Assembly: GCA_021158625.1 (NCBI GenBank)
Contig: JAGGUG010000076.1
Span: 1 to 37,946 of the forward strand
From: Candidatus Omnitrophota bacterium
GTDB lineage: Bacteria; Omnitrophota; 4484-213
DNA length: 37,946 nucleotides
Direction of reading: 5' to 3'
Positions 1 to 37,946 of the stretch are shown piece after piece. A program made the position numbers and the translations under genes. The notes under the pieces were generated by a model. It was not told the DNA's origin. It made no database searches and was given only the letters and a program-made list of their open reading frames with translations. Numbering within the stretch: position 1 is the first letter of the stretch; each line of letters opens with the position of its first letter.

Positions 1-1419
1 GAAGTAGAGGATAAGATTGGGGCGTATCTCTTTTTGGATAAAGAGAGGATTTTAAACAACGCCAAGGAGGAAAGACAGGGTTTGCTGGCTGGAATTCCTG
101 TAAGTATAAAGGATAACATCTGTGTAGGCGGTGAATTAACCCGCTGTGCCTCTAAGATATTGGAGGGATTTAATTCTCCCTATGATGCAACTACAATCAA
201 AAACTTGAAGAGGGAAGGGGCGGTTCTCTTTGGTCGAACAAATATGGACGAGTTCGCTTTTGGCTCTTCGTGTGAGAGCTCTGCCTATCAAATTACTCAC
301 AACCCCTGGGATTTAGAAAGGGTGCCCGGTGGTTCAAGCGGTGGTTCAGCTGCCGCCGTAGCCGCTGACGAAGCAATATTTGCTCTGGGTTCAGACACCG
401 GCGGTTCAATCCGCCAGCCGGCAGCTCTCTGCGGAATAGTCGGGCTAAAGCCGACCTATGGTCGGGTTTCCCGTTATGGTTTGATCGCCTTTGGTTCTTC
501 TTTAGACCAGATTGGCACACTTAGCAAGGATGTGCGTGATGCCGCTCTTTTGCTAAAAGTAATTGCCGGTTTTGATAGCCAGGATTCTACATCTCTCAAT
601 ACCCCTGTTCCGGATTATGAAACCTATTTAGGAAAGGAGATAAAGGGTTTTAAAATAGGTATCCCCAGGGAGTATTTTATTGAGGGATTAGGAAGAGGTG
701 TAAGAGAAAAAGTAGAGGAGGCAATCAAGGTTTTTCAGAGATTAGGGGCAGAGTGCGTGCAGATCTCCTTGCCCCATACCGAATACGCTGTTTCGGTATA
801 TTACATTCTGGCTACTGCTGAAGCGAGCTCCAATCTATCGCGGTTTGATGGGGTGGAATACGGGCAAAGAGCAAAGAGCAAAAAAAACTTGCTATCAGAG
901 ATGTATGAGCAAACGAGGGGAGAGGGGTTTGGCAAGGAGGTAAAACGGCGGATTATCTTAGGAACCTATGTCTTGAGCAGAGGGTATTACGACCAATATT
1001 ATCTGAAAGCAGCAAAGGTTCGGGAACTCATCAGAGGGGATTTTGAAGAGGCATTTAAAAGATGTGATTTGATTGTTACCCCTACTTCGCCCACTCCAGC
1101 TTGGAAAATAGGCGAAAAAATAGACGACCCTCTGAAGATGTATCTCTCGGATATCTTTACTATCCCGGCGAATTTAGCCGGCATTCCGGCAATCTCTATC
1201 CCCTGTGGTTTTACCCCGTTAGAGGACTCTACGAGACAAAGTAAGAGCAGTGTTCGCAGTATTAAAGAGCGAGCGAAGGATTCTCTAAAGGGGTTTACAA
1301 ATGAACTCCCTGTAGGTTTGCAGATTTTGGGAAAGCCATTTAAGGAAGAAGAAATTTTGCAAGCCGCTTATGCTTATGAACAAGCCACAGAGTGGCATCT
1401 GCAGAAACCAGAATTATAG
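1..1419 (+). CDS. gatA: Glu-tRNA(Gln) amidotransferase subunit A, 5' end cut by window (frame is open from base 1; the M at 34 in the ORF track is an internal TTG)
   Basis: Amidase signature region [13 protein letters not shown] and [13 protein letters not shown]-terminal PCGF...LPVGLQILG...YEQATEWH. Followed by gatB. Confidence 0.95.
1210..1296 (+). repeat. 84-bp in-frame palindromic insertion in gatA (variant of the TACCC-GTTA element family)
   Basis: Left end GGTTTTACCCCGTTAGAGGA and right end TTCTCTAAAGGGGTTTAC are imperfect inverted repeats. The F-T codons are duplicated exactly 84 nt apart (1210 and 1294). It adds 28 aa between PCGF and LPVGLQ. Confidence 0.6.
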
Positions 1420-9159: not shown

Positions 9160-9194
9160 AATATGAGCGGATGCAAGGAAAGAAAGTAAATAAA

Positions 9195-9373
9195 GGCGTC
9201 CGCCTCTGGCGGACTATCCTCAGCCCCGAAGTTTCGGGGCTTCGGCTCTCGCTTCGCGAGTAAGGAAGAAAAACAAAAAGCGGAAATCTGCTTTGCAGAT
9301 TTCCTATCCTCAGCCCGCCTACGCTAAAGCTTTGGCGGGCTTCGGCTCTCGCTTCGCGAGTAAGGAAAGGAGG
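9195..9373 (+). repeat. Two tandem copies of a multi-hairpin leader module, each ending in CTTCGGCTCTCGCTTCGCGAGTAAGGAA; the second copy ends in the ribH Shine-Dalgarno
   Basis: Hairpins GTCCGCC-TCT-GGCGGAC (9198-9214) and GGAAATCTGC-TTT-GCAGATTTCC (9282-9304). TATCCTCAG at 9215 and 9305. Identical 29-mers start at 9240 and 9340. A third copy lies at 27966-28015. Confidence 0.85.
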
Positions 9374-9858: not shown

Positions 9859-9979
9859 CCCCACACCAATTTCTCTTTTGCTTAAGCATCTTGGAAAATT
9901 GGCGGGGGGTTCAATTCGCAAACGGAGTTCGTTCCACAATTTAGGTGGCTTACATTCCGTAAATTGTCTGCTCATTGAA
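9859..9979 (+). repeat. Two-hairpin intergenic module (H1 CCCCACACCAATTT.../...AAATTGGCGGGGGG, then H2 TTCAATTC...CATTGAA), copy 1, abutting the nusB ATG
   Basis: Its 3' part TTCCGTAAATTGTCTGCTCATTGAA is near-identical to copy 2 at 11646-11670. Confidence 0.65.
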
Positions 9980-9980
9980 A

Positions 9981-10490
9981 ATGCGTAAGAGAACAAGAGC
10001 AAGAGAAATAGCCCTCCAGATTCTTTATCTGATTGATATCAGTGAAGATGATTATCAGGTTGCTTGGGAGAAATTTTGGGCTGTAGAGTCTCCCGAGGTT
10101 TCTGAGGAGGCTCATCCTGTTAAATCCGCCGATGGCGGAGCGGCGAAGCCGCTATTTAACAGGGTAAAGGAATTTTCACAGCAATTAGTAAAAGGGACGA
10201 TAGAGAATCTTAAATCGCTCGATGATGTAATTGAGAGCTTCACCGAGAACTGGCGACTCTCGCGGATGGCAGTGGTTGAGCGGAATATTCTGCGGCTTGC
10301 TACCTATGAACTCCTTTTTTGCCCTGAGATTCCTCCAATTGTCTCCATAAACGAGGCAATTGACCTGGCAAAGAAATACAGCGGTCTGGAAGCCGGTAAA
10401 TTCGTGAACGGGATACTGGATAAGATAAGAATCTCCAAGCTGCAAGCCACAAGCTCCAAGCTACAGGCTGACTCAAACCCTGAAGTTTGA
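9981..10490 (+). CDS. nusB: Transcription antitermination factor NusB (carries an internal element insertion and a repeat-derived C-terminal tail)
   Basis: RTRAREIALQILY, WRLSRM..VERNILRLATYEL, INEAIDLAKKY...KFVNGILDKI. Confidence 0.9.
   Translation: MRKRTRAREIALQILYLIDISEDDYQVAWEKFWAVESPEVSEEAHPVKSADGGAAKPLFNRVKEFSQQLVKGTIENLKSLDDVIESFTENWRLSRMAVVERNILRLATYELLFCPEIPPIVSINEAIDLAKKYSGLEAGKFVNGILDKIRISKLQATSSKLQADSNPEV
10113..10166 (+). repeat. 54-nt copy of the TACCCTGTTAAAT palindromic element, in frame in nusB
   Basis: CATCCTGTTAAAT + CCGCC-GAT-GGCGG + AGCGGC-GAA-GCCGCT + ATTTAACAGGGTA; encodes HPVKSADGGAAKPLFNRV. Confidence 0.8.
10434..10468 (+). repeat. Heptamer array (NNCAAGC x5) forming the nusB C-terminal tail
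   Basis: TCCAAGC TGCAAGC CACAAGC TCCAAGC TACAGGC; translated as SKLQATSSKLQA after the conserved NGILDKI end. Confidence 0.8.
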
Positions 10491-11571: not shown

Positions 11572-11670
11572 TTTTTCAAAGATGTTTGCCCAAAGTAGAA
11601 AATTAGTGCTGGGTTCAATTCGCACAGCGATTTACGAGCACTTCGTTCCGTAAATTGCGTACTCATTGAA
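11561..11670 (+). repeat. Two-hairpin intergenic module, copy 2 (H1 11561-11613, H2 11614-11670)
   Basis: H1 is CCCAGCACTAATTTT...AAAATTAGTGCTGGG, a 15-bp stem that contains the ribD stop codon. H2 is TTCAATTCGCA...CTCATTGA, and its last A is the A of the ribE ATG. Confidence 0.8.
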
Positions 11671-13486: not shown

Positions 13487-14405
13487 AATTTCGGGTTGCG
13501 GGTAAAGGGTTGCGGGGTGCGAATTTCCCGCTTCCCGCTAACCGCTCAAGAACTTGCAGGTACTTCTTACTCGTCTTATCAACTATCTCCGCCGGCAATT
13601 CGGGAGCAGGTGGAGTTTTATCCCAGTTTAAACTCTCCAGGTAATCGCGCACAAACTGTTTGTCAAAACTGGCTTGACTTTTGCCCGCAGAGTACTTATC
13701 CTTAGGCCAGAACCTTGAGGAGTCCGGCGTGAGCAATTCGTCGATAAGGATAATTTCGCCCTTATAGAAACCAAACTCAAACTTTGTATCGGCAATAATT
13801 ATACCCTTAGTTTCGGCATATTCACTCGCTTTTTTATACAGGGCAATGCTTATCTCTTTTAGTTTGCCGGCGGTGTTTTTACCAATTTCTTTTTCAATAT
13901 CCTCTTGGCGGACATTTATATCGTGACCCCTCTCCTCTTTTGTTGCCGGAGTAAAAATAGGTTCGGGTAGTTTATCAGCCTGTTTAAGTCCCTCAGGCAG
14001 TTTTATTCCGCAGATGGATTGGCTCTTCTCATATTCTTTCCAACCTGAACCGGCTAAATAGCCCCGAACTACACATTCCACAGGTATGGGCTCTGCCTTT
14101 TGGACGAGCATTGCGCGGCCAGACAGAATTTCTTTATATTTTGATAGAACAGGAGGAAACTCACGAATATCAGCGCTGAGCAAGTGATTGGGGATAATAT
14201 CTTTTGTTAAGTGGAACCAGAACGCCGAGAGTTTGGTTAACACCTCCCCTTTGTGAGGAATGCCGGTAGGGAGAACTACATCAAAGCAGGATATTCTATC
14301 GGTGGAGATAATCAAGAGTTGAGTTCCTAAATCATAGATATCCCGGACCTTTCCTCTTTTGAAAAGATTGAGTTCAGTAAGGTTTGTTGACTCTACGAGC
14401 GGCAT
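13479..14405 (-). CDS. purC: Phosphoribosylaminoimidazole-succinocarboxamide (SAICAR) synthase, long form
   Basis: GKVRDIYD, ISTDRISCFD, IIIADTKFEFG, LIDELLTPDSSRFW. Confidence 0.93.
   Translation of the reverse strand: MPLVESTNLTELNLFKRGKVRDIYDLGTQLLIISTDRISCFDVVLPTGIPHKGEVLTKLSAFWFHLTKDIIPNHLLSADIREFPPVLSKYKEILSGRAMLVQKAEPIPVECVVRGYLAGSGWKEYEKSQSICGIKLPEGLKQADKLPEPIFTPATKEERGHDINVRQEDIEKEIGKNTAGKLKEISIALYKKASEYAETKGIIIADTKFEFGFYKGEIILIDELLTPDSSRFWPKDKYSAGKSQASFDKQFVRDYLESLNWDKTPPAPELPAEIVDKTSKKYLQVLERLAGSGKFAPRNPLPATRNYG
13493..13548. repeat. Heptamer-periodic imperfect palindrome (GGGTTGC GGGTAAA GGGTTGC GGGGTGC | GAATTTC | CCGCTTC CCGCTAA CCGCTCA) spanning the purC 3' end
   Basis: Direct reading. 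GCGGG blocks in the left half are complementary to CCCGC blocks in the right half, in 7-nt phase. Confidence 0.7.
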
Positions 14406-16230
14406 TTAATCTCCTCTTTTGTTCCTCGAGAATCTCAAACAAAATCTTGGGGGCATCAGGGACCTTTGTTTTATAAATTTCTATGATTCTTTCTACTTTT
14501 GCTAGGTTAGCATCAATTCTCAAGGTAAATTCTTTCTGATAATCCCTTTCTGAATAATCCTTGCCCAGCACTTGCTTAAATAATCTTTTGAGGTCTTCAT
14601 AGCGAGGGAGGAATCCAATCGGGCTTTCAATCGCTTCTATTTCCTTATGCACCCTGAGTTCCATCCATTTAAGCCAGACCCTTTTATCCTCTATCGCACT
14701 CAGATAGTTGCCATTTTCATCTCTCAGAAAATAATTTACTCCAAAGATAGTAGGCGGATGAGCTAAATCCTTTGCAAATTGTAGATGGTTTTGTATATAT
14801 TTCCCGATGGGTATAGAAAGAAAGTCCAGATTTGCCATCGGATTGAGCTTTCGCACCCCTTGTTTCCCTAAAGTGGCAGCTGTAGTTTCTGATTCCAGGG
14901 AGGCAGCGATAGTTATTACCCCATGATTCCAATCAAAACTCTCAAATACTGATGGCCAGGCTTCTGCATCTCGGCCTCCGTAGATTATACCTTTAACCTC
15001 CACGCCCTCGGGATTTTCTAAATTCGGGTCGCAGTTTTTCAGCGTCTTCAGTCTAATGGTATATCTGGCATTGGGGTGGGGAAAAATAGTAGAATTTTTA
15101 GGATGAACTTTTCCATCGTTCAGCCAATAGGGAATGCCGTCTCTGACCAGGACATTGGAAAAAATAACCTCGCCCGGACTCGTCAGCGTCTGCCAGATTA
15201 GAGGATCATTTTGGGGGTTCACATCCCTTATTATTCCAAATATCCCCCTCTCTACATTTACGGCAAATACCTTCCCGTCCTTTTTTCGCAAATAGGCAAT
15301 ATCATCTCCTACTATGCTTTCTTCTTCCACCATACAGGTGGAGGTTTTTCCGCAGGCGCTGGGGAAGGCACCCGTAAAATAGGTTTTTCTATTGTTGGGG
15401 CCATTTACCCTGTTAAATAATCCCGAATAAGTCGGGATTCCGCCTTTGGCGGATTTGACAGGGTAAACCCCCATAACAAACATATGTTCGGCAAGCCAGT
15501 TCTCTTTGCTTGCTTTATTTATTGCCAGACGCAGGGCTAATTTTTTCAAACCCACAGTATTTCCGGCATATTGGCTATTGACTGTCCAAACAGTATTCTC
15601 GGAGAGGTCTATATATACCCTCCTCTTATCTATATTTTTGCTTACACTATTCTCTAATTCTCCGGCAGAGTGAACGAATTTAAAAAATTCTGTCTCGGTT
15701 CCTTTTTTCTTAAATACATCATAAGCCGAGCGGTAGAGGATGTCCTCGGAGTGGGCTACATAGGCCGAGTCGGTGAGTTGAACGGCATAGATAGAAAAAT
15801 CTGAATTCACTGGCCCAAGGCAAAGGAACAAAACAAACATTTCTTTGCCCGACATAATACCTTTTAATAGGGCTTGGATTTCAGATAGCCCTTTTTCTCG
15901 GACTATGGAATTAATATCCGAACCGAGGTTTTCGCCTTTACTTAGAAGGAATTTTGTATTCTGTTTATCCCTTGCCTGGTCAGTGGGTCCATCAAAGTGG
16001 ACAGTGTGGCCGTCTATGTTAAGTTGCTTTTCCTCCCCCAATTCCTTTGCCTTGTTTCTTATATATTGAGCGTCTTGCAGAGAATCGCTACGCACAAAGA
16101 CTGAGCGAGGATTGCAAAGCTCTACATATTCCCCGAGGAAATTAAGCAGTATGGGGTTATTTAAGGCAAGCAATTTCTGGTAGTTTTCTTGACTGCATTT
16201 AGTTTTAAATAGTTTTTGATGCCTTTTCAT
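14374..16230 (-). CDS. pckG: Phosphoenolpyruvate carboxykinase (GTP)
   Basis: FPSACGKT kinase-1a motif, GDDIAY, YGGRD, and other GTP-PEPCK signatures. 618 aa. Confidence 0.95.
   Translation of the reverse strand: [618 protein letters not shown]
15406..15465. repeat. Exactly 60-nt palindromic element (TACCCTGTTAAAT ... ATTTGACAGGGTA) in frame in pckG
   Basis: 13-nt inverted termini plus internal hairpins AATCCCGA-ATAAG-TCGGGATT and CCGCC-TTT-GGCGG. On the coding (minus) strand it encodes [20 protein letters not shown]. Confidence 0.88.
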
Positions 16231-18802: not shown

Positions 18803-19767
18803 AAACAACCACAGTAGGAAGTTTACCCAAGCCGGATTATCTAAAAAGGGCCCGCACTGATTTTCGTCAGAATAGAATTAGTCGCGAAGAACTAAAGAGG
18901 TTAGAAAAAAAGGCCACTGCCGAGTGGGTAAAGATTCAAGACGAAATTGGTCTGGATGTTTTGGTTGACGGAGAGATGTACCGCGGCGATATGGCTACCT
19001 ACTTTGCCGAAAACCTGAGCGGTTTTAAGATTAGTGGATTGGTGCGTAGTTATGGTAATCGTTATTATCGCAAGCCCATAGTTGTTGGGAAGATTAAAAG
19101 AGAAAAGCCAATTACCTTAGAGATGTTCAGATTTGCTCAGGGTTTAACTAAAAAGCCGGTTAAAGGGATGCTCACCGGCCCTTACACAATGGCTGATTGG
19201 TCGTTTAATGAATACTATCCCGACCGCCGCAGTTTGGTTCTGGATTTAGCCGAGGCAATTCATAAGGAAGCTGTAGATTTAGAAAAAGCCGGGGCAAAAT
19301 ATATTCAGATTGACGAGCCAGCGGTTTCCACCCATCCTGAAGAAATTGATTTGGCTATTGAAGCGATGAGGGTTGTGACTGCCGACTTAAAGGTAACTAC
19401 CATTACCCATATCTGCTATGGAGATTTTGTCAAGATTTATCCGAGGATGCTGGAGTTAGCCGTTGACCAATTTGACCTTGAGTTTGCCAATCGTCAATTT
19501 GAACTCTTACAACTTATTGAGGAAAAGGGAGGATTCAACGATAAGCAAATTGGTTTAGGGGTTATTGATGTTCATTCACACAGGATAGAAACCAAGGAGG
19601 AAGTTAAGGAGAATTTGCGCAAAGCCCTCAAGGTTTTTAAACCTGAGCAGATTTTTGTTGACCCGGACTGCGGCTTGAAGACACGCACAAAAGAAGAAAG
19701 TATAGCAAAGCTAAGGGTAATGGTGGAGGCCACGGAAGAGATAAGAGAAGAAATGGCCAATGTCTAA
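18796..19767 (+). CDS. metE: Short 'core' cobalamin-independent methionine synthase (MetE catalytic-domain type)
   Basis: VGSLPKP, VDGEMYR, IQIDEPA, HICYGD (HxC), GVIDVHS, DPDCGLKTR zinc-ligand pattern. Confidence 0.82.
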   Translation: MLKTTTVGSLPKPDYLKRARTDFRQNRISREELKRLEKKATAEWVKIQDEIGLDVLVDGEMYRGDMATYFAENLSGFKISGLVRSYGNRYYRKPIVVGKIKREKPITLEMFRFAQGLTKKPVKGMLTGPYTMADWSFNEYYPDRRSLVLDLAEAIHKEAVDLEKAGAKYIQIDEPAVSTHPEEIDLAIEAMRVVTADLKVTTITHICYGDFVKIYPRMLELAVDQFDLEFANRQFELLQLIEEKGGFNDKQIGLGVIDVHSHRIETKEEVKENLRKALKVFKPEQIFVDPDCGLKTRTKEESIAKLRVMVEATEEIREEMANV

Positions 19768-19911
19768 TTGCTCTAATTGACCTAAATAAAGCCCAATGAT
19801 TAATGACTGGATGTAAGAATATTAGACATTTTAGCATTAGACATTGACTTGCCTCGCTGAAGCTCTGGCGAAGCGGGTTAGACATTAGGTTAATTAGAAA
19901 TTAGACATTTT
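19759..19911. repeat. Heptamer-armed hairpin element (AATGTCTAATT... / ...TAATTAGAAATTAGACATTTT) between metE and the tonB-like gene
   Basis: The outer arms 19759-19787 and 19879-19911 are imperfect inverted repeats. The metE stop codon lies in the left arm. The core holds the GC hairpin CCTCGCTGAAGC...GCGAAGCGGG. Confidence 0.7.
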
Positions 19912-19917
19912 AAAGTT

Positions 19918-20772
19918 GTGTCTCTGAGCTCTCTCCAAAAAAGATTTAGTTTAAGCTTTCTGATTTCTCTGAACATTCACATAGCTCTTTTTTTGTGTTT
20001 TTCTCCTCATTTTAATGCCTCCTCTTTTTCTTCTCCCCGGATTATATATTATCAGAGAGAAACTAGAAGACAACCGCCGAAAGCGAGCCTCGCCAAAGGC
20101 GGGAAAACACCAGAAAAGAAGATAGACAATAAAAAAAAAGAGGTTAAACTTGATAAAATAGAAGTAAAAAAAAGGTCACCAGGTTACCATGGCACCCTTG
20201 CCCGCCGAAATCCGCAGGGTGAAAGCAGAAGGCAAAAGCAGAAAAAAAACATAAAACCCAGAATCAAGAACCGAATAGCGATAAAAGATAGAATATTTAC
20301 CCCCTTAGAAAACTCCACCTCTCCGTGGGCCGGGAAAGAATGTTTATTAAGAAAGGGCGGGGGGAAAGCCCCGTCCTTTCTAACGGGGTTTACTAAAAAA
20401 GTAAGCTCAAGAGAAGATCAGCAACAAAAAGAAGAGAAAATTCTCATAGAGCAGAAGCGTCAGAAAAAGGTTCTTGAGAAAAGAAATTTATTAAGTTATT
20501 ATCGAGTTATCAGTGAACAGATTAAGCAAAAGGCAGTTTATCCTGAAGAGGCAAGAAGGAGTTTAAGTGAAGGATTGGTTTATATCTCTTTTACTGTTTT
20601 TGACGATGGTCGTTTGAAAGAGATAGAACTTAAGGTCTCTTCAGGAAATGATTACCTGGATAAAGCGGCTTTGCGCAGTGTCCAGGAGGCTGCCCCTTTT
20701 CCGCCGTTCCCAGCAGAAATAAAAGAAAGAGAGCTGTGTCTGAATATCCCTATTTCTTTTGAAATAGAATAA
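19918..20772 (+). CDS. TonB-like energy transducer (N-terminal TM, Lys-rich linker, TonB C-terminal domain); GTG start
   Basis: C-terminal YPEEARRSLSEGLVYISFTV...G.L.EIELKVSSGNDYLDKAALRSVQEAAPFPPFP. No exbBD genes are adjacent. Confidence 0.75.
   Translation: MSLSSLQKRFSLSFLISLNIHIALFLCFSPHFNASSFSSPRIIYYQRETRRQPPKASLAKGGKTPEKKIDNKKKEVKLDKIEVKKRSPGYHGTLARRNPQGESRRQKQKKNIKPRIKNRIAIKDRIFTPLENSTSPWAGKECLLRKGGGKAPSFLTGFTKKVSSREDQQQKEEKILIEQKRQKKVLEKRNLLSYYRVISEQIKQKAVYPEEARRSLSEGLVYISFTVFDDGRLKEIELKVSSGNDYLDKAALRSVQEAAPFPPFPAEIKERELCLNIPISFEIE
20296..20394 (+). repeat. 93-bp in-frame palindromic insertion in the tonB-like gene (same family and frame as the gatA insertion)
   Basis: ACCCCCTTAGAAA versus TTTCTAACGGGGT inverted termini. 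F-T codons are duplicated 93 nt apart. Internal hairpin AGAAAGGGCGGGG / CCCCGTCCTTTCT. Encodes FTPLENST...FLTGFT. Confidence 0.65.
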
Positions 20773-20917: not shown

Positions 20918-21150
20918 AAATGTCTAATGACTAATTAACCTAATTGACCTAATGAATGACTAATGACAAACATTTAATGTCTAAACAATTATTAGTTTAC
21001 CCCGTTAATAATTCACAAAGCAAATTACCCTCTTAAATAAAATCTTTGATTTTCTTTTGCTGAAAGCAAAAGATTTAGCAGGGTATTTAAGGGGATGAAT
21101 GGACATTAGGCATTGATTAGACATTAGAGTAATTAGAAATTAAACATTTT
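20918..21150. repeat. Second TTAGACA-type heptamer-armed hairpin element with nested palindromes, upstream of rpsU
   Basis: Left arm AAATGTCTAATGACTAATTAACC...; right arm ...GACATTAGAGTAATTAGAAATTAAACATTTT. The core has TACCCCGTTAATAA.../...TATTTAAGGGGA and CTTTTGCTGAAAGCAAAAG. The last 21 nt are 20/21 identical to 19891-19911. Confidence 0.7.
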
Positions 21151-21197: not shown

Positions 21198-21380
21198 TTG
21201 ACAGAAGTAAGGGTAAGAGCAAATGAGTCCTTCGAAAGGGCATTGCGGCGGTTTAAAAGGATGGTAGAGAAAGAAGGGACATTAAGGCAGTTACGCGAGC
21301 ATAAGGAGTATGAGAAGCCTAGTGATAAACGCCGGAAAAAAAGAGGGAAAGAGAAGGCCGGAGGCGCAAAAAGATACTAG
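21198..21380 (+). CDS. rpsU: 30S ribosomal protein S21 (TTG start at 21198 preferred over the track TTG at 21189)
   Basis: [20 protein letters not shown]...KPSDKRR. GGAG at 21185-21188 is 9 nt before 21198. Confidence 0.9.
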
Positions 21381-21381
21381 T

Positions 21382-21590
21382 CACAGGCTTCAAGCCTCAA
21401 GCTCCAAGAGGGTTGTGTCTAAGGGTTTCGGTTGCGGTTACGTATCGTCCATCGTCATCGTTTATCGTCTTAGAACGAGATACGAAACCGAAAGACGTAA
21501 CCGATACGTGGCTGAAACCCCAACCGATAGACGGAACCAAAGCGACCTGCAGCTTGCAGCCTGAAAGCCTGCAGCCTGAGGTTTGGAGCT
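21382..21590. repeat. Entire rpsU-pilC spacer is built from degenerate heptamers (NNCAAGC x4; CGTATCG/GGTTACG/ATCGTCN core; GCTTGNN/GCCTGNN x5)
   Basis: 7-nt periodicity read directly. The left and right arrays are of complementary types. Confidence 0.75.
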
Positions 21591-22810: not shown

Positions 22811-22964
22811 GCCCAGCACTAATTTTTCGGGATACTTAACCGTAGCAGAAAATTAGTGCCGGGCTCAATTCCACCATACAATTTAGTCTCCTTGCCCCGA
22901 TACCATCCCCACGTTCGTCGGGGCCTACGGGGCAGGCAGTCGCCTAAATTGTGGTGTCATTGAA
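22811..22964 (+). repeat. Two-hairpin intergenic module, copy 3 (H1 22811-22864, H2 22865-22964), between pilC and clpC
   Basis: The H1 stem GCCCAGCACTAATTTT/AAAATTAGTGCCGGGC matches the copy 2 stem but has a different loop. H2 is TCAATTCCACCATACAATTTAG...CTAAATTGTGGTGTCATTGA with an inner GC-rich hairpin. Confidence 0.75.
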
Positions 22965-22974
22965 GGGGGTTTAA

Positions 22975-25413
22975 ATGTTTAGTCGTTTTACCGAACGTGC
23001 CCGAAAGGTCATTTTATTGGCAAAAGAGGAGGCAAAGAGGTTAAATCACGATTACATCGGCACCGAGCATATTTTATTAGGTCTGGTTAGAGAAGGCGAA
23101 GGAGTAGCCGCAGCAGTCCTCGAGGGATTATTGGGGATAAGTTTAGAGACGGTTCGCCTCGAGGTAGAAAAGTTAATTAAACCGGGAAGCGATCTCCTCG
23201 TCTCCGGGGATATTCCTTTTACGCCCAAGGCGAAAGAGGTACTTGAGTTAGCCTTTGACGAAGCGAAGAAGATGGGGCATAACTACATCGGCACCGAGCA
23301 TCTGCTATTGGGTTTGCTTCGCGAGAAGGAAGGGATTGGGGCACAGGTTTTGCTCAATCTGGGTTTAGATATAAATAAATTAAGAGAGGCGATAATGCGT
23401 CTTTTAGGAGAGGGGGTTCCTTCAGGAGAGCCAGATAGCGAAAGCCGCAGAGGCAGAACAAAAGAGAAGAGTAGAACCCCGGCTCTTGATGCCTTTGGTC
23501 GCGATCTCACCAGTCTGGCAAAGGAGGGCAAGCTTGACCCGGTTATTGGCCGGGTAAATGAGATCGAAAGGGTAATTCAGATATTAGCCCGACGGACAAA
23601 GAATAATCCGGTGCTCTTAGGAGAAGCCGGAGTGGGCAAGACAGCGATTGTGGAAGGTTTAGCCCAGAAGATAGTGGAGGGGAGTGTCCCCGAGGTTCTT
23701 CTGGACAAGAGGATTGTTATCCTTGATTTAGGGTTGATAGTTGCCGGGACAAAGTATCGTGGGCAGTTCGAAGAACGTATCAAAGCAGTAATGCAAGAGA
23801 TTAGAAGGACAAAGAATGTGATTATATTTATTGACGAACTGCATACATTGGTAGGAGCAGGGGGGGCAGAAGGGGCATTAGATGCCTCTAATATTCTCAA
23901 ACCGGCTCTCTCGCGGGGAGAGATACAATGCATCGGAGCAACCACTCTTAATGAATATCGTAAATATATTGAGAAAGACGCTGCCCTGGAAAGGAGATTT
24001 CAGACAATCACCGTTGACCCTCCCACAATCGAGGAAACAATAGAGATTCTTAAGGGTTTAAGGCCTAAATATGAGGCGTTTCATAAGGTAAAGATGAGCG
24101 ATGAGGCTTTGGAAGCAGCGGCTAAATTATCTGATAGATATATCAGCGGAAAATTTTTGCCCGATAAGGCGATTGACCTTATTGACGAAGCCGGCTCGCG
24201 AGCGAGATTAAGCGCTACAGTTGTTCCGCCCAATTTTAAAAATCTGAAGCAAAAGATCGAGAGGTTAGATAAACAGAAGAAAGAGGCAGTCAGCAACCAG
24301 GATTTTGAAAAAGCGGCTGAGATAAGAGACCTTGAGAGGAAAGCCAAAGAGGAGTTAGCTGAGAAAGAGAAAAACTGGAAGCAGCGCCGGGGAGAAAAGA
24401 AGATAACGCTTGGTAGAGAGGATATTGCCCGGGTTGTTTCCCAAATCACCAATATCCCCCTGGCGCAGTTAGAAGAAAAGGAAACAAAGAGATTACTACA
24501 AATGGAAAAGGAGATTCACAAGAGAGTAGTCGGTCAGGATGAAGCGGTGCGGGCTATCGCCCAGGCGGTGCGCCGCTCAAAGGCAGGGATTAAAGACCCC
24601 CGTCGGCCAATTGGTTCATTTATCTTTTTAGGACCTACCGGCGTAGGAAAAACCTTATTGGCAAGGGTATTAGCCGAGTTTATGTTTGGTCACGAAGATG
24701 CAATGTTTCAGATTGATATGTCCGAGTATATGGAGAAGTTTAATGTCTCCCGTTTGATCGGTGCCCCTCCCGGCTATGTGGGCTATGAAGAAGGGGGGCA
24801 GTTAACCGAGAAGGTGCGGAGAAAACCCTATTCGGTTGTCTTATTGGATGAGATTGAGAAAGCCCATCCCGATGTCTTCAATCTATTGCTCCAGATTTTA
24901 GAGGATGGTAGCCTTACTGATAGTTTTGGCCGCAAGGTAGATTTTAGAAATGTAATTTTGATAATGACCTCTAATGTGGGCACAGAGATGTTGAAGAAGA
25001 AAGGAACTATTGGTTTTTCTGCCCCTGAAGAAGATGCATCCTATGAGACGATGAAAAGAAAGGTATTGGATGCGGCAAAGAAGGTATTTCGGCCGGAGTT
25101 CCTGAATCGCATTGACGAGATGGTCGTTTTTCATTCCTTGACCAAAGAGGATTTAAAGAAGATTGTTGACTTGCAGATAGAAGAGGTCCAGGAGCGGCTC
25201 TCCGAGAAGCAGTTAAATATAAGGCTTACCTCTTCGGCTAAGGAATTTTTGATTGAAAAGGGTTATGACCCGCTTTTAGGGGCAAGACCCCTGCGTCGGA
25301 CTATCCAGAGATATCTGGAGGATCCCTTATCTGAGGAAATTCTCGCCGGGAGGTTTAAAGGTAAAAAGACAGTGGAGGTCTCTTTGAAGAACGGACGGTT
25401 GGTGTTTGGATGA
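22975..25413 (+). CDS. clpC: ATP-dependent Clp protease ATP-binding subunit ClpC
   Basis: Double Clp-N repeat, two AAA+ modules ([16 protein letters not shown]), and a UVR-like motif [11 protein letters not shown]. Confidence 0.95.
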
Positions 25414-26229: not shown

Positions 26230-26973
26230 ATGATTAAGATAAGGAACTTACGAAAATCCTTTGGCGAGCACCTAATTTTGGATAATTTGAATTTAGATGT
26301 TCGTAGAGGCGAGACAATGGTAATTATTGGGCGAAGTGGTTGCGGGAAGAGTGTTTTGTTGAAGCATATTGTGGGTATTCTCAAGCCGGATAGAGGAGAG
26401 ATTTTTGTAAACGGAGAAAATATAGTTAATTTAGATAGAAAGAGATTGAGTGAACTACGGATGAAGATAGGCGTGCTCTTTCAGGAAGGTGCATTATTTG
26501 ATTCGCTCACTGTGGGAGAGAATGTAGGTTTTTTGTTGTTAGAACACAGCAAGAAAAGTCGGAGGGAGATTTTTGAGAAATATGTTCGAGAAAAGCTGGC
26601 AATGGTTGGCTTGAGCGGTGTGGAGGACTTAAGGCCGGCTGAACTCAGTGGAGGAATGAAAAAACGCGTAGGTTTAGCCCGGGCAATCTGCGCCAATCCC
26701 GAGCTCATCCTTTACGATGAACCAACCACTGGTGTTGACCCGATTATGGCTGCGGTGATTAACGACCTCATCAGAAAATTGCATAATCAATTAAAAGTAA
26801 CCTCAGTAGCAGTTACTCACGATATAAAAAGCGCCTACAAAATAGCCGACCGCATCGCAATGCTCTATCAGGGAAAGATTATTGAAGTTGGCACTCCCCG
26901 GGAGATTAAAAATAGTTCTAATCCAGTCATTCAGCAATTTATAAAAGGGGAAAAGGAGGGCCCAATTAAATAA
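26230..26973 (+). CDS. mlaF: Phospholipid ABC transporter ATP-binding protein MlaF
   Basis: GRSGCGKS Walker A, LSGGMKKRVGLARA signature, LILYDEPT Walker B. Confidence 0.9.
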   Translation: MIKIRNLRKSFGEHLILDNLNLDVRRGETMVIIGRSGCGKSVLLKHIVGILKPDRGEIFVNGENIVNLDRKRLSELRMKIGVLFQEGALFDSLTVGENVGFLLLEHSKKSRREIFEKYVREKLAMVGLSGVEDLRPAELSGGMKKRVGLARAICANPELILYDEPTTGVDPIMAAVINDLIRKLHNQLKVTSVAVTHDIKSAYKIADRIAMLYQGKIIEVGTPREIKNSSNPVIQQFIKGEKEGPIK

Positions 26974-27208
26974 AATTCCAAATCACAAATTCCAAATCAC
27001 AAATAAATTCCAATTGACCCTGTTAAATGCCACTTCGTGGCAATTTCGCCTCTGGCGGAATTATTTAACAGGGTGAACCCAAAAAAATAACAAGAGAATG
27101 TCTTTAAGTAGGTGTTTTGGTCATTGCTTATTGGCTAGGGGACTTGCCCGCAGGGCGAGTATATTTGGAATTTATTTGTTATTTGGTGCTTGGAATTTGG
27201 TGCTTCAC
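26974..27208. repeat. About 235-nt long inverted-repeat element with CCAAAT-type heptamer arms and no ORF, between mlaF and mlaD
   Basis: Left arm AATTCCAAATCACAAATTCCAAATCACAAATAAATTCCAA; right arm TTGGAATTTATTTGTTATTTGGTGCTTGGAATTTGGTGCTTCAC. There is a 15-nt perfect complementary core. A 23-mer at 27170-27192 is the exact reverse complement of 37562-37584. Confidence 0.75.
27016..27075. repeat. 60-nt TACCCTGTTAAAT-family element nested inside the long inverted repeat
   Basis: GACCCTGTTAAAT + GCCAC-TTC-GTGGC + AATTTCGCC-TCT-GGCGGAATT + ATTTAACAGGGTG. Confidence 0.85.
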
Positions 27209-27219
27209 TGGGGGTAGGC

Positions 27220-27957
27220 ATGCACATAAGGACAGAGTTTAAAGTAGGTCTATTTGTTTTTCTGGCTTTGCTTATCTTTTTTGTTATTGTTTTTTTTATC
27301 GGCGATTTTTCCTTAAAGCAGGGTTATACCCTTTTTGTCCGCTTTAATTTTGTGAATGGCTTAGAACCAGCCGCCCCCGTGAGATTAGCCGGCGTAAAGG
27401 TGGGAGAGGTGAAAGAAATAAAGGTGACTAAAAATCGCCCGCCGGTGGAAGTTCGGTTATGGCTCAAGAAAGGAACTCCTGTTGAAAGGAACTGCCGGGT
27501 TTACATCAACAGTTTAGGGCTGTTGGGGGAGAAGTATGTGGAGATTTCGCCCGGCAAATCCTCTGTTTTAATCAAACCTGGAGAAACAATTATTGGCTGC
27601 GACCCTGTTTCTCTTCAGCAACTTTCTCATTTAGGTGAACAAACGATTAGAAAGGTAGATAGAGTAATTGGGAATTTAGAAGAGATAATCAGCGACGAGG
27701 AGGTGAGGAGGGATATAAAGGAGATAATCAAGGATAGCAAGCAATTGAGCCAGCAGCTCAATGTTGTTGTTGATGAAGCGAATCAATCCTTAGCCAATCT
27801 CAATTTTATCTTTGAGCGGATAAACAGAGGAGAAGGGACAATCGGTAAACTTCTCAGCGATGAGGAGTTGTATAATGAAATTAGGGATTTGGTCCAGGAT
27901 ATCAAAAAACATCCCTGGAAGTTGTTCTGGAAAACGAAAGAGAAAAGGAAAAAATAA
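27220..27957 (+). CDS. mlaD: MlaD (MCE-domain) periplasmic lipid-binding protein
   Basis: N-terminal TM (VGLFVFLALLIFFVIVFFIG), MCE domain GL...APVRLAGVKVGEV. The ATG at 27220 is preferred. The track TTG at 27190 lies in the repeat arm. Confidence 0.85.
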   Translation: MHIRTEFKVGLFVFLALLIFFVIVFFIGDFSLKQGYTLFVRFNFVNGLEPAAPVRLAGVKVGEVKEIKVTKNRPPVEVRLWLKKGTPVERNCRVYINSLGLLGEKYVEISPGKSSVLIKPGETIIGCDPVSLQQLSHLGEQTIRKVDRVIGNLEEIISDEEVRRDIKEIIKDSKQLSQQLNVVVDEANQSLANLNFIFERINRGEGTIGKLLSDEELYNEIRDLVQDIKKHPWKLFWKTKEKRKK

Positions 27958-27965
27958 ATAAGAGC

Positions 27966-28015
27966 GTCCGCCTTTGGCGGACTTCGGCTCTCGCTTCGCG
28001 AGGAAGGAAAGGAGG
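27966..28015 (+). repeat. Third copy of the leader module (GTCCGCC-TTT-GGCGGAC + CTTCGGCTCTCGCTTCGCGAGGAAGGAAAGGAGG), supplying the gap Shine-Dalgarno
   Basis: 33 of 34 nt are identical to 9340-9373. It ends 5 nt before the gap ATG. Confidence 0.85.
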
Positions 28016-30489: not shown

Positions 30490-31464
30490 ATGAGAATTTT
30501 GGTTACCGGTGGTGCGGGGTTTATTGGCTCGCATCTCTGCAAGAGATTTATTGAGCAAGGAAATAAAGTAATCTGCATAGATAATTTTATTACCGGCACA
30601 AAGAAAAACATAGAAGAACTACTGCATTCTTCAAACTTTAAATTAATTGAACGCGACATATCAATACCTCTGTATATAGAGGAAGATTTAGATTGGGTTC
30701 TTCATTTCGCTTCTTTAGCCTCCCCCAAGCACTATCTAAACTATCCCATTAAAACACTCAAATCCGGTCTTTTGGGCACTTATAATTGCCTTGGATTAGC
30801 AAAGGAAAAAAAAGCAAAATTTTTCCTGGCTTCTACCTCTGAGGTCTATGGCGACCCCTCAATCCATCCGCAACCCGAGGAGTATTGGGGAAATGTTAAT
30901 CCTATCGGGCTCCGGAGTTGTTATGATGAGAGCAAGCGCGCGGCTGAAGCCCTAACCTATGCCTATATGCGTCAGCACAATTTAGATGTTCGAGTGGCGC
31001 GTATATTTAATAGCTATGGTCCGAATATGCAAGCAGACGATGGAAGGGTTGTCTCTAATTTTATTGTTCAAGCATTAAAGGGTAAGGATTTAACCGTGTA
31101 TGGAGAGGGTAATCAAACCCGTTCTTTTTGCTATATTAATGATTTAATAGAAGGAATTTTAAAAATGATGGAGGTTGATTATAAGTTGCCTTTAAATTTA
31201 GGAAGTTCTTCCGAGTTTAAGATTATTGAAGTGGCTAATTTGGTATTAAAATCTACAAATTCAAACTCAAAGATAAAATTCCTACCCTTGCCTGAAGATG
31301 ACCCCAAGCGAAGAAAACCTGATATAAGTAAAGCTAAAAAGATATTAAACTGGCAGCCAAGAGTTTCCCTGGAAGAGGGTTTAAAGAAAACAATAGAGTT
31401 TTTTACCCTGTTAAATTGTTCGCCGAAGGCGAACACCTCACAAAGCGAGGATTTAACAGGGTAA
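30490..31464 (+). CDS. UDP-glucuronate decarboxylase (UDP-xylose synthase-like SDR)
   Basis: VTGGAGFIGSHL, STSEVYGDP, YDESKR, RIFNSYGP. The last 19 aa and the stop codon come from the repeat element. Confidence 0.88.
   Translation: MRILVTGGAGFIGSHLCKRFIEQGNKVICIDNFITGTKKNIEELLHSSNFKLIERDISIPLYIEEDLDWVLHFASLASPKHYLNYPIKTLKSGLLGTYNCLGLAKEKKAKFFLASTSEVYGDPSIHPQPEEYWGNVNPIGLRSCYDESKRAAEALTYAYMRQHNLDVRVARIFNSYGPNMQADDGRVVSNFIVQALKGKDLTVYGEGNQTRSFCYINDLIEGILKMMEVDYKLPLNLGSSSEFKIIEVANLVLKSTNSNSKIKFLPLPEDDPKRRKPDISKAKKILNWQPRVSLEEGLKKTIEFFTLLNCSPKANTSQSEDLTG
31404..31463. repeat. Exactly 60-nt TACCCTGTTAAAT-family element forming the uxs 3' end
   Basis: TACCCTGTTAAAT + TGTTCGCC-GAA-GGCGAACA + CCTC-ACAAAGC-GAGG + ATTTAACAGGGTA. 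The TAA stop at 31462-31464 is formed by the last two element bases (TA) plus the next base. Confidence 0.88.
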
Positions 31465-37545: not shown

Positions 37546-37610
37546 GTGAAATTCCAAATCCCAAGCACCAAATAACAAATAAATCTCAAGCACCAAATCC
37601 CAATGACCGA
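37546..37610 (+). repeat. CCAAAT-type heptamer arm preceding the four-helix-bundle gene
   Basis: GTGAAATTCCAAATCCCAAGCACCAAATAACAAATAAATCTCAAGCACCAAATCCCAATGACC. It shares an exact 23-mer (as reverse complement) with the right arm of the element at 26974-27208. Confidence 0.75.
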
Positions 37611-37621
37611 AACAGAGACAA

Positions 37622-37946
37622 ATGGATAATTATGATTTAGAAGAGCGAACTTATCAGTTTGCTAAAGAAGTTGCTTTATTTGTAAAGAAACTGCCAAAGA
37701 CAATTGCAAATATAGAATATGCAAGACAAGTAATAAAATCCTCAGGTTCGACAGGAGGAAATTATATTGAAGCTAATGAATCCTTGAGCAAAAAAGGATT
37801 TTGTAATGAGAATTAAAATTTGCCGCAAGGAAGCAAAAGAATCTGCTTATTGGTTAAGATTACTTGTAGATACAAATTCAGAGGATTTCAGACAAGAAGG
37901 TTTGTCCCTCAAGAAAGAGGCTACAGAATTAAAGAAAATTTTCTCC
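37622..37946 (+). pseudogene. Four-helix-bundle protein (23S rRNA intervening-sequence protein / Avd family), interrupted by a 1-nt frameshift in an A6 run and truncated by the window end
   Basis: Frame 0 gives MDNYDLEERTYQFAKEV...GNYIEANESLSKK, then stops at 37814-37816. The +1 frame from 37797 continues the family pattern: DFVMRIKICRKEAKESAYWLRLLVDTN...ELKKIFS. Removing one A from 37790-37795 restores the frame. Confidence 0.7.

Follow-up and report, generated by a model that had tools for sequence, protein, structure and literature searches.

A probable mobile palindromic element inserted in frame in gatA of a Candidatus Omnitrophota bacterium

The gatA locus and its 84-nt insertion

The window analysed in this work is a stretch of 37,946 nucleotides of a Candidatus Omnitrophota bacterium, namely contig JAGGUG010000076.1 of assembly GCA_021158625.1, whose first gene, gatA, is interrupted near its 3' end by an 84-nt in-frame segment with inverted ends. 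The gene is cut by the contig end and was identified by the PF01425 amidase family, by its GatA homologues and by GatA chains in the PDB (E = 4e-155). The following features, to which no strand is assigned except for the gene itself, define the locus:

1 to 1419, plus strand: gatA, truncated at its 5' end by the contig end, read in frame 1; host of the insertion
1210 to 1213: left copy of the duplicated target TTTA, within the Phe-Thr codons of PCGFT; the empty site of the relative L001 has a single GGTTTTAC
1214 to 1293: 80-nt element core, delimited by a relaxed terminus scan; missing from 16 homologues and from the DNA of the relatives L001 and L003
1214 to 1226: left terminal inverted repeat CCCCGTTAGAGGA, which fits the superfamily consensus ACCCCGTTAGARRT
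1281 to 1293: right terminal inverted repeat TTCTCTAAAGGGG, with 2 mismatches in 13 nt against the left arm; the outer stem has 5+8 bp in the fold
1294 to 1297: right copy of the duplicated TTTA, read from the sequence

Positions 1201-1320 read CCC TGT GGT TTT ACC CCG TTA GAG GAC ... TCT CTA AAG GGG TTT ACA AAT GAA CTC CCT GTA GGT TTG CAG, with TTTAC at 1210-1214 and again at 1294-1298, at a spacing of exactly 84 nt. The insertion thus consists of the 80-nt core and one TTTA (84 nt, 28 codons), and its sole stop-free frame is the one in use. An earlier note on this DNA, made from the letters alone, had described inverted ends bracketed by a duplication; the ends are confirmed by the 15-nt arm TACCCCGTTAGAGGA (1212-1226), which is found again on the minus strand at 1281-1295 (3 mismatches in 15), as well as by the recurrence of the termini across a whole family of elements. 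A third match of the same arm lies on the plus strand at 20298-20312, in a TonB-family gene. Judged by the window statistics, the inverted repeat exceeds chance only weakly (3 matches vs 0.9 expected, with 7/100 shuffles reaching 3), and what makes it decisive is the family-level data presented below.

The same note had claimed that the segment splits the conserved PCGF / LPVGLQ region of GatA, and an ortholog alignment supports this reading, as do PDB chains and DNA of a relative. The 28 residues are missing from all 16 aligned closest homologues (up to 83% identity), which read PCGFT-NGLPVGLQ or similar at the site, and from the GatA chains of six organisms in the PDB (Aquifex 3H0L, S. aureus 2DF4 and others), which align to query residues 2-404 and 432/434-464 with zero or one chain residue in between. 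At the DNA level, L001 has a clean empty site where CCCTGTGGTTTTAC runs directly into AAACGGACTGCC (as a short string, GGTTTTAC followed by AAAC), and the window reads CCCTGTGGTTTTAC, 84 nt, and then AAATGAACTCCC. An AlphaFold2 (AF2) model, built for GatA from a 17-sequence alignment, places the insert at residues 409-432, with pLDDT <50, between strands 397-406 and 435-444; this position between two beta-strands is in line with the PDB alignments, which imply a tight turn.

Close GatA relatives (P0002-P0006) bear variable low-complexity inserts of 10-25 aa elsewhere in the protein, at alignment columns 338-362, after RFDGVxYGxR. Examples are NPQPATPTCAEASAGRRKPQT and TVNSLQPTVYSLQKTENR, which may be further repeat-derived inserts.

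Related elements in the contig

A relaxed scan of the contig for imperfect copies of the termini returned nine pairs, against 0-2 in shuffled sequence, and seven of these are real elements: two with the GatA/TonB type of terminus and five of a sister type, the "60-nt" family, whose ends are CCCTGTTAAAT / ATTTAACAGGG. Five of the seven lie in coding sequence, in the genes for GatA, NusB, phosphoenolpyruvate carboxykinase (PEPCK) and TonB and at the 3' end of a sugar epimerase/dehydratase gene. Besides the GatA copy, the elements are (no strand assigned):

20296 to 20392: sibling in the TonB-family gene (open reading frame (ORF) 19918-20772, plus strand), built as TTTA, an 89-nt core (20300-20388) and TTTA
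10115 to 10164: sister-family element in nusB (ORF 9975-10490; NusB TIGR01951), in frame, with a net insertion of 54 nt that encodes HPVKSADGGAAKPLFNRV
15408 to 15463: sister-family element in the PEPCK(GTP) gene (minus-strand ORF 14374-16230), a 60-nt insert that encodes YPVKSAKGGIPTYSGLFNRV
21028 to 21095: degenerate intergenic sister-family element, with an orthologous copy in locus L124 at 94% identity
27018 to 27073: intergenic sister-family element with two internal hairpins, from the relaxed terminus scan
31406 to 31461: sister-family element at the 3' end of an NAD-dependent sugar epimerase/dehydratase gene (SDR-type, UXS; ORF 30490-31464)

The TonB-family gene, recognized by its C-terminal domain (TIGR01352), carries the sibling in the same frame as GatA does, as the earlier note had stated: its insert comprises 93 nt or 31 codons and encodes the peptide FTPLENSTSPWAGKECLLRKGGGKAPSFLTGF. 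Both the GatA and the TonB copies are flanked by TTTA and then C. The TonB copy folds with z ~ -1, and its right half resembles a subfamily found in Nitrospirae and Desulfobacterales loci. Among the sister-type elements, the intact PEPCK and UXS copies fold strongly as DNA (z = -7.9 and z = -11, respectively), with an outer stem of ~15 bp around two hairpins. The UXS copy provides the last 18 codons of its gene (LLNCSPKANTSQSEDLTG, after Phe-Thr from the flanking TTTA) together with the TAA stop. The ATG of the next gene (31467) lies 2 nt past this element-supplied stop codon.

Presence and absence of these copies differ among relatives. The nusB element is missing in L001, where the empty site reads GAGGA/AGTAAAG, i.e., TTTAC on the other strand, and it is present in L124-L126, from a closer relative resembling Omnitrophica 4484_213. 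The TonB copy is common to the window and L124 (92% identity), and the PEPCK copy is missing in L124 (P0122) and in nine other homologues. At the same PEPCK position, after FVMGV, locus L248 of a further relative holds a truncated copy with a different interior (~1380-1420; GTTTACCCTGTTAAATTGTTCGCC..., giving VYPVKLFAKNN); the site has therefore been struck at least twice, which points to the PEPCK GTTTAY site as a hotspot for recurrent insertion.

A superfamily with shared termini in many phyla

Elements of the GatA/TonB type, hereafter the CCCCGTTAGA family, were sought with the pattern ACCCCNTTAGAN{45,75}TCTAANGGGGT over 185,579 species-representative genomes, which returned at least 119 stretches; by our own estimate (596 Gb x 31 spacings / 4^20), ~17 would be expected by chance. 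The end pattern of the superfamily, ACCCCNTTAGA...TCTAANGGGGT, is accordingly present at 119 loci or more. The copy statistics, hosts and gene contexts given below for this family are those among the matches listed (124-125 copies). The hosts include many Patescibacteria (Kaiser-, Jorgensen-, Saccharibacteria and others), Omnitrophota, Planctomycetota (Pirellulales, Phycisphaerae, Sedimentisphaerales), Deltaproteobacteria / Desulfobacterota, Nitrospirae, KSB1, Cloacimonadota and Gammaproteobacteria. The second mobile family proposed in the earlier note is supported, with the refinement that it is not private to one genome but extends over many phyla.

Conservation of these copies is confined to the ends. 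The position left unconstrained in the pattern is G in 234/246 half-sites, positions 12-14 of the arm are conserved as RRT, and no conservation is seen further in, which gives terminal inverted repeats of 13-14 nt with the consensus ACCCCGTTAGARRT ... AYYTCTAACGGGGT. The interiors are heterogeneous and mostly unstructured (median z = -0.8) and are unrelated between subfamilies, some of which are kept across species, such as a type of 96-97 nt in Deltaproteobacteria; family members range in size from 26 to 171 nt.

The flanks of the copies display the signature of a target-site duplication. Flank position -3 is T in 109/124 copies, position +3 is A in 116/124, and -4/+4 are enriched for G/C. 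The two bases between T and A are the same on the left and right in 88/124 copies, against a chance value of 1/16 (p = 2e-76), and at least nine tetranucleotides are found duplicated (TTTA, TAAA, TTGA, TGAA, TCAA, TTCA, TGGA, TAGA, TCTA and others). Mutual information between these two flanking bases and internal positions stayed at the null level, with no signal of guide-directed targeting; as there is no such covariation, the TNNA is derived from the target and not borne by the element. The mobile unit can thus be written as CCCCGTTAGARRT ... AYYTCTAACGGGG and its target, (G)TNNA(C) and often TTTAC, is duplicated over the 4 bp of TNNA. For the GatA copy, the duplication that the earlier note had drawn as GGTTT(T)AC is best described as the 4-bp TTTA at TTTA^C.

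Minimal units of 26-32 nt, made of two arms and a loop, occur in L005 (4197-4268), L025 (2206-2237), L034 (6013-6092), L102 (7462-7492) and L093 (17-106); some of them are nested in larger copies, which suggests that the arms alone constitute the mobile unit.

Placement of the elements is scattered over ORFs and spacers, and no gene context is common to them besides the target motif. Many members lie inside or adjoin type IV pilus loci, including L010 (3025-3106 and 6120-6201), L047 (6333-6426) and other loci near PilB/PilC genes, and 12/119 loci bear T2SSE-like ATPases. Several copies sit exactly at the Gly-Phe-Thr codons of prepilins (GGNTTTAC), giving ...GFTPLE...LTGFTLIE, as in L010 (...SGFTPLESVV...SLTGFTLIEV). 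The association with pilus genes is explained by the prepilin Gly-Phe-Thr codons, since GGN TTT ACN constitutes a perfect target; presumably, the extra peptide at these sites sits in the leader that is cut off by prepilin peptidase.

An Rfam search in evalue mode over the whole window gave no family match for the elements, and its mir-1991 hit on the UXS copy (E = 0.35) is attributed to chance. No paper on the family was found in the searched literature, and a description may exist outside that literature. Viral contigs returned 1 match over two scans; from this near-absence, we conclude that the elements are not phage-borne.

The sister family

A metagenome scan with CCCTGTTAAATN{15,45}ATTTAACAGGG returned at least 120 loci of this abundant family; its figures likewise hold among the matches listed. 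Exactly two internal hairpins are found in 94/117 distinct copies, with a median interior z = -4.2, and the hairpin sequences vary freely between copies while the three-way-junction architecture is kept. Flanking tetranucleotides follow TTYA to the left and TRAA to the right; once the copies are brought into one orientation, nearly all have TTTA at one end, and at the other end stands TGAA (36 copies), CGAG (8), TAAA (7), TTAA (6) or CAGG (5). Direct repeats outside these flanks were sought in this family and were found in a handful of copies only.

The empty site of nusB fits a "core plus four nucleotides" next to TTTA, and the PEPCK site would fit the same model if its ancestral state was GTT TAT GGC, as suggested by homologues such as P0139. 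The sister family may follow a different mode of insertion (e.g., IS200/IS605-like, 3' of TTTA), or else its flanks were reshaped later.

Kinship between the two families, which the earlier note had drawn from a shared terminus, gains support from two sides. The ends grade from CCCCGTTAGAAAT through CCCCGTTAAAT to CCCTGTTAAAT, with the intermediate, CCCCGTTAAAT, found in L072 and L124, and TTTA is the site of both families wherever an empty site is available or inferable. Both the intermediate end and the shared target argue for relatedness.

In L003, two 37-nt hairpins of the CCCTGTTAAAT type (313-349 and 1814-1850) stand inverted around a 1.46-kb segment whose 351-aa product gives only faint transglutaminase-like hits in Pfam and none in NCBIfam; this arrangement is either a composite unit or a coincidence.

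Reading-frame bias

A copy was considered intragenic when an open frame of at least 40 codons extended on both sides of the element. In the CCCCGTTAGA family, 19/67 inserts whose length is a multiple of three are intragenic, as compared with 0/58 of the others (Fisher p = 1.9e-6), and the sister family displays the same bias (14/49 vs 2/73, p = 4.6e-5), with (V/I)(Y/H)PVKS...FNRV(K/N) as its typical peptide. Two terminal frames are used, TPLE...LTG(F), as in GatA and TonB, and xPVR...SNGV, and the third contains TAG. A bias of this kind would be predicted for purifying selection acting on translated inserts, and not for splicing, inteins or bypassing.

Interpretation of the gatA insertion

[quoted passage not shown] Insertion, inverted repeats, duplication, family membership, frame bias and presence or absence among relatives are direct observations, and movement by transposition is what we infer. 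In the mechanism we propose, a small non-autonomous palindromic element of MITE type would insert at TTTA^C in the Phe-Thr codons of gatA and duplicate TTTA; its 28 stop-free codons, lying in the frame of the gene, would be translated into a 28-residue loop, placed where a tight turn joins the last two beta-strands of GatA and tolerated by the cell; and, within genes, only frame-keeping copies would persist. The outer stem of the GatA copy is kept and its interior hairpins are weak, and given this weak fold it looks like an older, eroded member.

Several results weigh against this reading. The fold of the GatA copy is modest relative to shuffled sequence (z = -2.3 as DNA, -3.6 as RNA), and its interior is unique: BLAST against all fetched loci matched the termini alone and gave no second copy. 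Copy counts cover the 38-kb contig. The AF2 model is poor (mean pLDDT 57) and served for placing the insert only, and the predicted translation of the GatA insert, as opposed to its removal, is deduced from comparative frame statistics. Moreover, ~1.7 Mb of fetched flanks brought up no transposase, RAYT-like gene or autonomous element bounded by such ends. Finally, the sister-family flanks are identical in just 3/121 copies, i.e., there is no simple target duplication, so that a mechanism common to both families is a possibility only.

These sister flanks speak for an alternative in which PATE- or REPIN-like hairpins, each inserted 3' of TTTA together with its own distal tetranucleotide, would be mobilised in a single-stranded process by an HUH/Y1 enzyme (IS200/IS605 or RAYT type). 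Nearly all sister copies have TTTA as one flank and a subfamily-specific sequence as the other, the NusB empty site (as well as PEPCK, if its ancestor was GTT TAT GGC) fits without extra changes, two internal hairpins with a strongly negative interior z are the rule in the sister family, and the GatA copy, with TTTA at both ends, is compatible. Conversely, the CCCCGTTAGA family duplicates nine or more different TNNA and lacks guide covariation, as expected for target duplication; no Y1/RAYT-like ORF recurs near the elements, and many copies are intragenic, unlike REPs. We therefore regard mobilisation by an HUH/Y1 enzyme as unlikely, albeit the best placed of the alternatives.

Less probable still, and in our view quite improbable, is that the hairpin represents a functional nucleic-acid structure kept by selection, for instance one that stabilises mRNA, serves RNase III or attenuation as a site, or is bound as a palindrome by a recombinase. 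Such a role would account for a three-way junction that is kept in the sister family while its hairpin sequences differ completely between copies, and the two ends, once joined, would give a 13-4-13 palindrome reminiscent of the core site of a recombinase; against it stand the eroded GatA copy itself, with mismatched arms and weak interior hairpins, the mostly unstructured interiors of the CCCCGTTAGA family, the scattered locations and the lack of an Rfam family.

The identical Phe-Thr codons 84 nt apart, with a hairpin, also resemble take-off and landing sites, and the insert could be imagined to be removed before the mature protein is formed, as an intron, an intein or a segment bypassed in translation between the identical TTT-ACN codon pairs; bypassing has precedents in T4 gene 60 and in the mitochondrial 'byps'. 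Removal would free the length and stop content of the inserts, yet intragenic copies of both families are strongly frame-biased; the UXS copy supplies a C-terminal tail and a stop, which is sensible only if the element is read; and the insert is far too small for an intein (28 residues) or for a group I/II intron (84 nt), with Rfam empty. An intein or intron was further rejected because TPLED...LKGF has no catalytic Cys/Ser/Thr or His-Asn at its boundaries, no ribozyme or intron was found in Rfam, and the frame constraint is strong. We thus consider removal very improbable.

Lastly, an ancestral, lineage-specific GatA loop lost by the relatives is hardly credible: the gatA allele is present on one contig only, so that the direction of change is deduced from outgroups, but the segment is missing in 16 homologues and in PDB GatA chains of six organisms, its terminal inverted repeats and duplicated TTTA recur in more than 100 elements elsewhere, and the same termini occur in an unrelated TonB-family gene.

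Comparison with known small repeats

The closest analogue of the element is the RPE, and we treat it as an analogue and do not file the element as a member. RPEs are palindromic repeats that lie in frame in housekeeping genes and are read through (Ogata et al., 2000, Science 290:347; reviewed in PMC10969869), and a similar mechanism in other prokaryotes has been called merely "conceivable" (PMC10969869). Both kinds of elements are palindromic and non-autonomous, stand in frame in unrelated housekeeping genes, add peptide loops, lack an identified transposase and form several families per genome; read-through is predicted here from the open frame across the GatA insert and from the frame statistics. 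RPEs measure ~100-150 bp and are confined to Rickettsia, whereas the elements described here measure 26-171 nt, occur in many phyla, share just their 13-14-nt ends and show a TNNA duplication, which sets them apart from RPEs as described in published work.

With regard to MITEs, the core of the GatA element measures 80 nt (below ~300 bp), cannot code for a transposase and ends in inverted repeats; its target site is duplicated, as TTTA flanks the core on either side and is found once at the empty site. Bacterial MITEs such as Correia/NEMIS, ERIC, RUP and Nezha (reviewed in PMC10969869) are likewise small, with inverted repeats, short duplications and hairpins, and are occasionally intragenic. 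Nonetheless, known families of this kind as a rule stay within a genus and can be traced back to an insertion sequence (IS) as their parent; for the elements reported here no parent IS was found, their ends are conserved across phyla with unrelated interiors, and they have a strong target motif, (G)TNNA(C). Overall, they differ from the described families in their very small size, in the sharing of ends only across phyla, in the TNNA target, in the three-way junction of the sister family and in having no parent IS.

Other systems share single traits with these elements. The ends of piggyBac read TTAA followed by CCCTAGAAAG, and the IS1380 family has CC ends and 4-5-bp repeats. Both recall the present elements in a 4-bp T..A duplication (TTAA being one TNNA) and in CC(C)-initiated ends followed by TAGA, which read CCCCGTTAGAAA here. 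The resemblance covers ~10 nt and constitutes a lead only, the target here is TNNA and not strictly TTAA, and no piggyBac or IS1380 transposase was found near any copy in the fetched flanks. Insertion at TTAA is accompanied in piggyBac by seamless excision (PMC7351741).

The REP/REPIN-RAYT system and the PATEs of IS200/IS605 are also hairpin units of 60-110 nt with a conserved tetranucleotide at the stem foot; if the elements were mobilised in trans by a single-copy host gene, the lack of a linked transposase would be accounted for, and the flanks of the sister family fit a fixed tetranucleotide. However, REPs are extragenic and have GTAG-type heads, and the elements studied here are often intragenic with a TNNA head. 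Membership in REP/REPIN-RAYT was rejected on these two grounds and because no small transposase-type ORF recurs within 1 kb. An IS200/IS605 PATE was rejected for the CCCCGTTAGA family because its TNNA is variable and duplicated, without guide covariation; the CCCTGTTAAAT flanks of the sister family are compatible with it.

The small dispersed repeats of heterocystous cyanobacteria, reportedly treated by Elhai and colleagues in 2008, are said to be palindromes of 20-30 nt that nest in one another and in genes and have no known enzyme. Nesting of 26-32-nt minimal units is seen here as well (L005, L025, L034, L102), with different sequences and lineages. Integron attC sites (RYYYAAC ... GTTRRRY) were rejected, given that the elements read GTTAGA ... 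TCTAAC, in reversed order, and sit in housekeeping genes.

The mobilising activity

As a leading guess, the mobilising enzyme would be a DDE transposase acting in trans with 4-bp staggered cuts. In the flanks examined, paired ends 0.3-4.5 kb apart enclose ordinary genes (ClpB-like, ArgG/ArgH-like and others), and the collections were not scanned for ends 0.6-3 kb apart. All-against-all clustering of ORFs of at least 200 aa grouped type IV pilus ATPase/PilC, ABC ATPase, translation factors and similar housekeeping proteins, with no transposase among them, and fifteen solo ends had no adjacent candidate enzyme. ORFs of 90-330 aa within 1 kb of elements comprised response regulators, MraZ/RsmH, pilins, a sigma factor, XerC-like proteins (3 loci) and SSB, without any Y1/RAYT.

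Genes for XerC/D-like tyrosine recombinases lie within 1 kb of an element in L025 (6629-7534), L115 (3329-4213) and L233 (158-943), a slight excess over a rough expectation. The arm TGTTAAAT bears what we take to be a likeness to the XerD arm of E. coli dif, which is a lead only.

On a tentative note, and with greater doubt than belief for the proposal taken as one, the CCCCGTTAGA and CCCTGTTAAAT families may together constitute an undescribed pan-phylum superfamily of ultra-small palindromic elements, moved by a chromosomal enzyme and remodelling essential proteins. In this joint proposal, the minimal units would be of ~26-32 nt; the enzyme would be conserved, would take the place of a cognate insertion sequence as the mover, and would recognise the 13-14-nt arms and the TNNA core, with joined ends forming the 13-4-13 palindrome; the preferred target would be TTTAC, including the Gly-Phe-Thr codons of prepilins; and in-frame peptides would keep remodelling GatA, NusB, PEPCK, TonB and pilins in streamlined uncultivated bacteria.

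Significance

An RPE-like phenomenon is thereby seen in Omnitrophota, and elements that share its ends extend to Patescibacteria, Planctomycetota, Desulfobacterota and further phyla, with several located in essential genes. The interest lies mainly in the cross-phylum family and its missing enzyme, and less in the GatA copy: an end of 13-14 nt that is shared across phyla without a visible transposase points to an unrecognised or host-encoded mobilising activity. For annotation, these inserts inflate or distort protein models of metagenome-assembled genomes and create false "lineage-specific loops"; for protein evolution, new surface loops and C-terminal tails can readily arise from them; and, for population genomics, the differences in presence and absence between close relatives may serve as markers.

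Other repeats in the contig

Further repeats of other types were observed in the window. A short repeat of the CAAGCTNCAAGCC type (D13; 10436-10460 and 21370-21408) forms the C-terminal extension of NusB (…SKLQATSSKLQADSNPEV), which the L001 NusB orthologue does not have, and thus a second type of repeat seems to intrude into coding 3' ends. Repeats D2/D20 (9183-9273, 9330-9373 and 27951-28015) are an intergenic GC-rich double hairpin, GTCCGCCTYTGGCGGAC ... CTCGCTTCGCGAG, in three copies upstream of genes, and their hairpins resemble those within the 60-nt elements.

A conserved intergenic sequence of ~90 nt, ..GAAAATTAGTGCYGGGYTCAATTC..CCGTAAATTG..CTCATTGAA (D5/D10 and I15; 9877-9979, 11581-11670 and 22831-22871), has its first half in all three spacers and its second half in the first two only, with no Rfam match. 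These copies lie just upstream of the nusB ORF (9975), just upstream of the ORF at 11670, and in the spacer before the ORF at 22975, and they could represent a shared leader or promoter module. Finally, AT-rich low-complexity spacer repeats (CCAAATCACAAAT... and TAATTAGACATT...) are found at 26973-27013, 27165-27208, 37546-37623, 19751-19911 and 20918-21150, and one inverted pair of them brackets the TonB-family gene.

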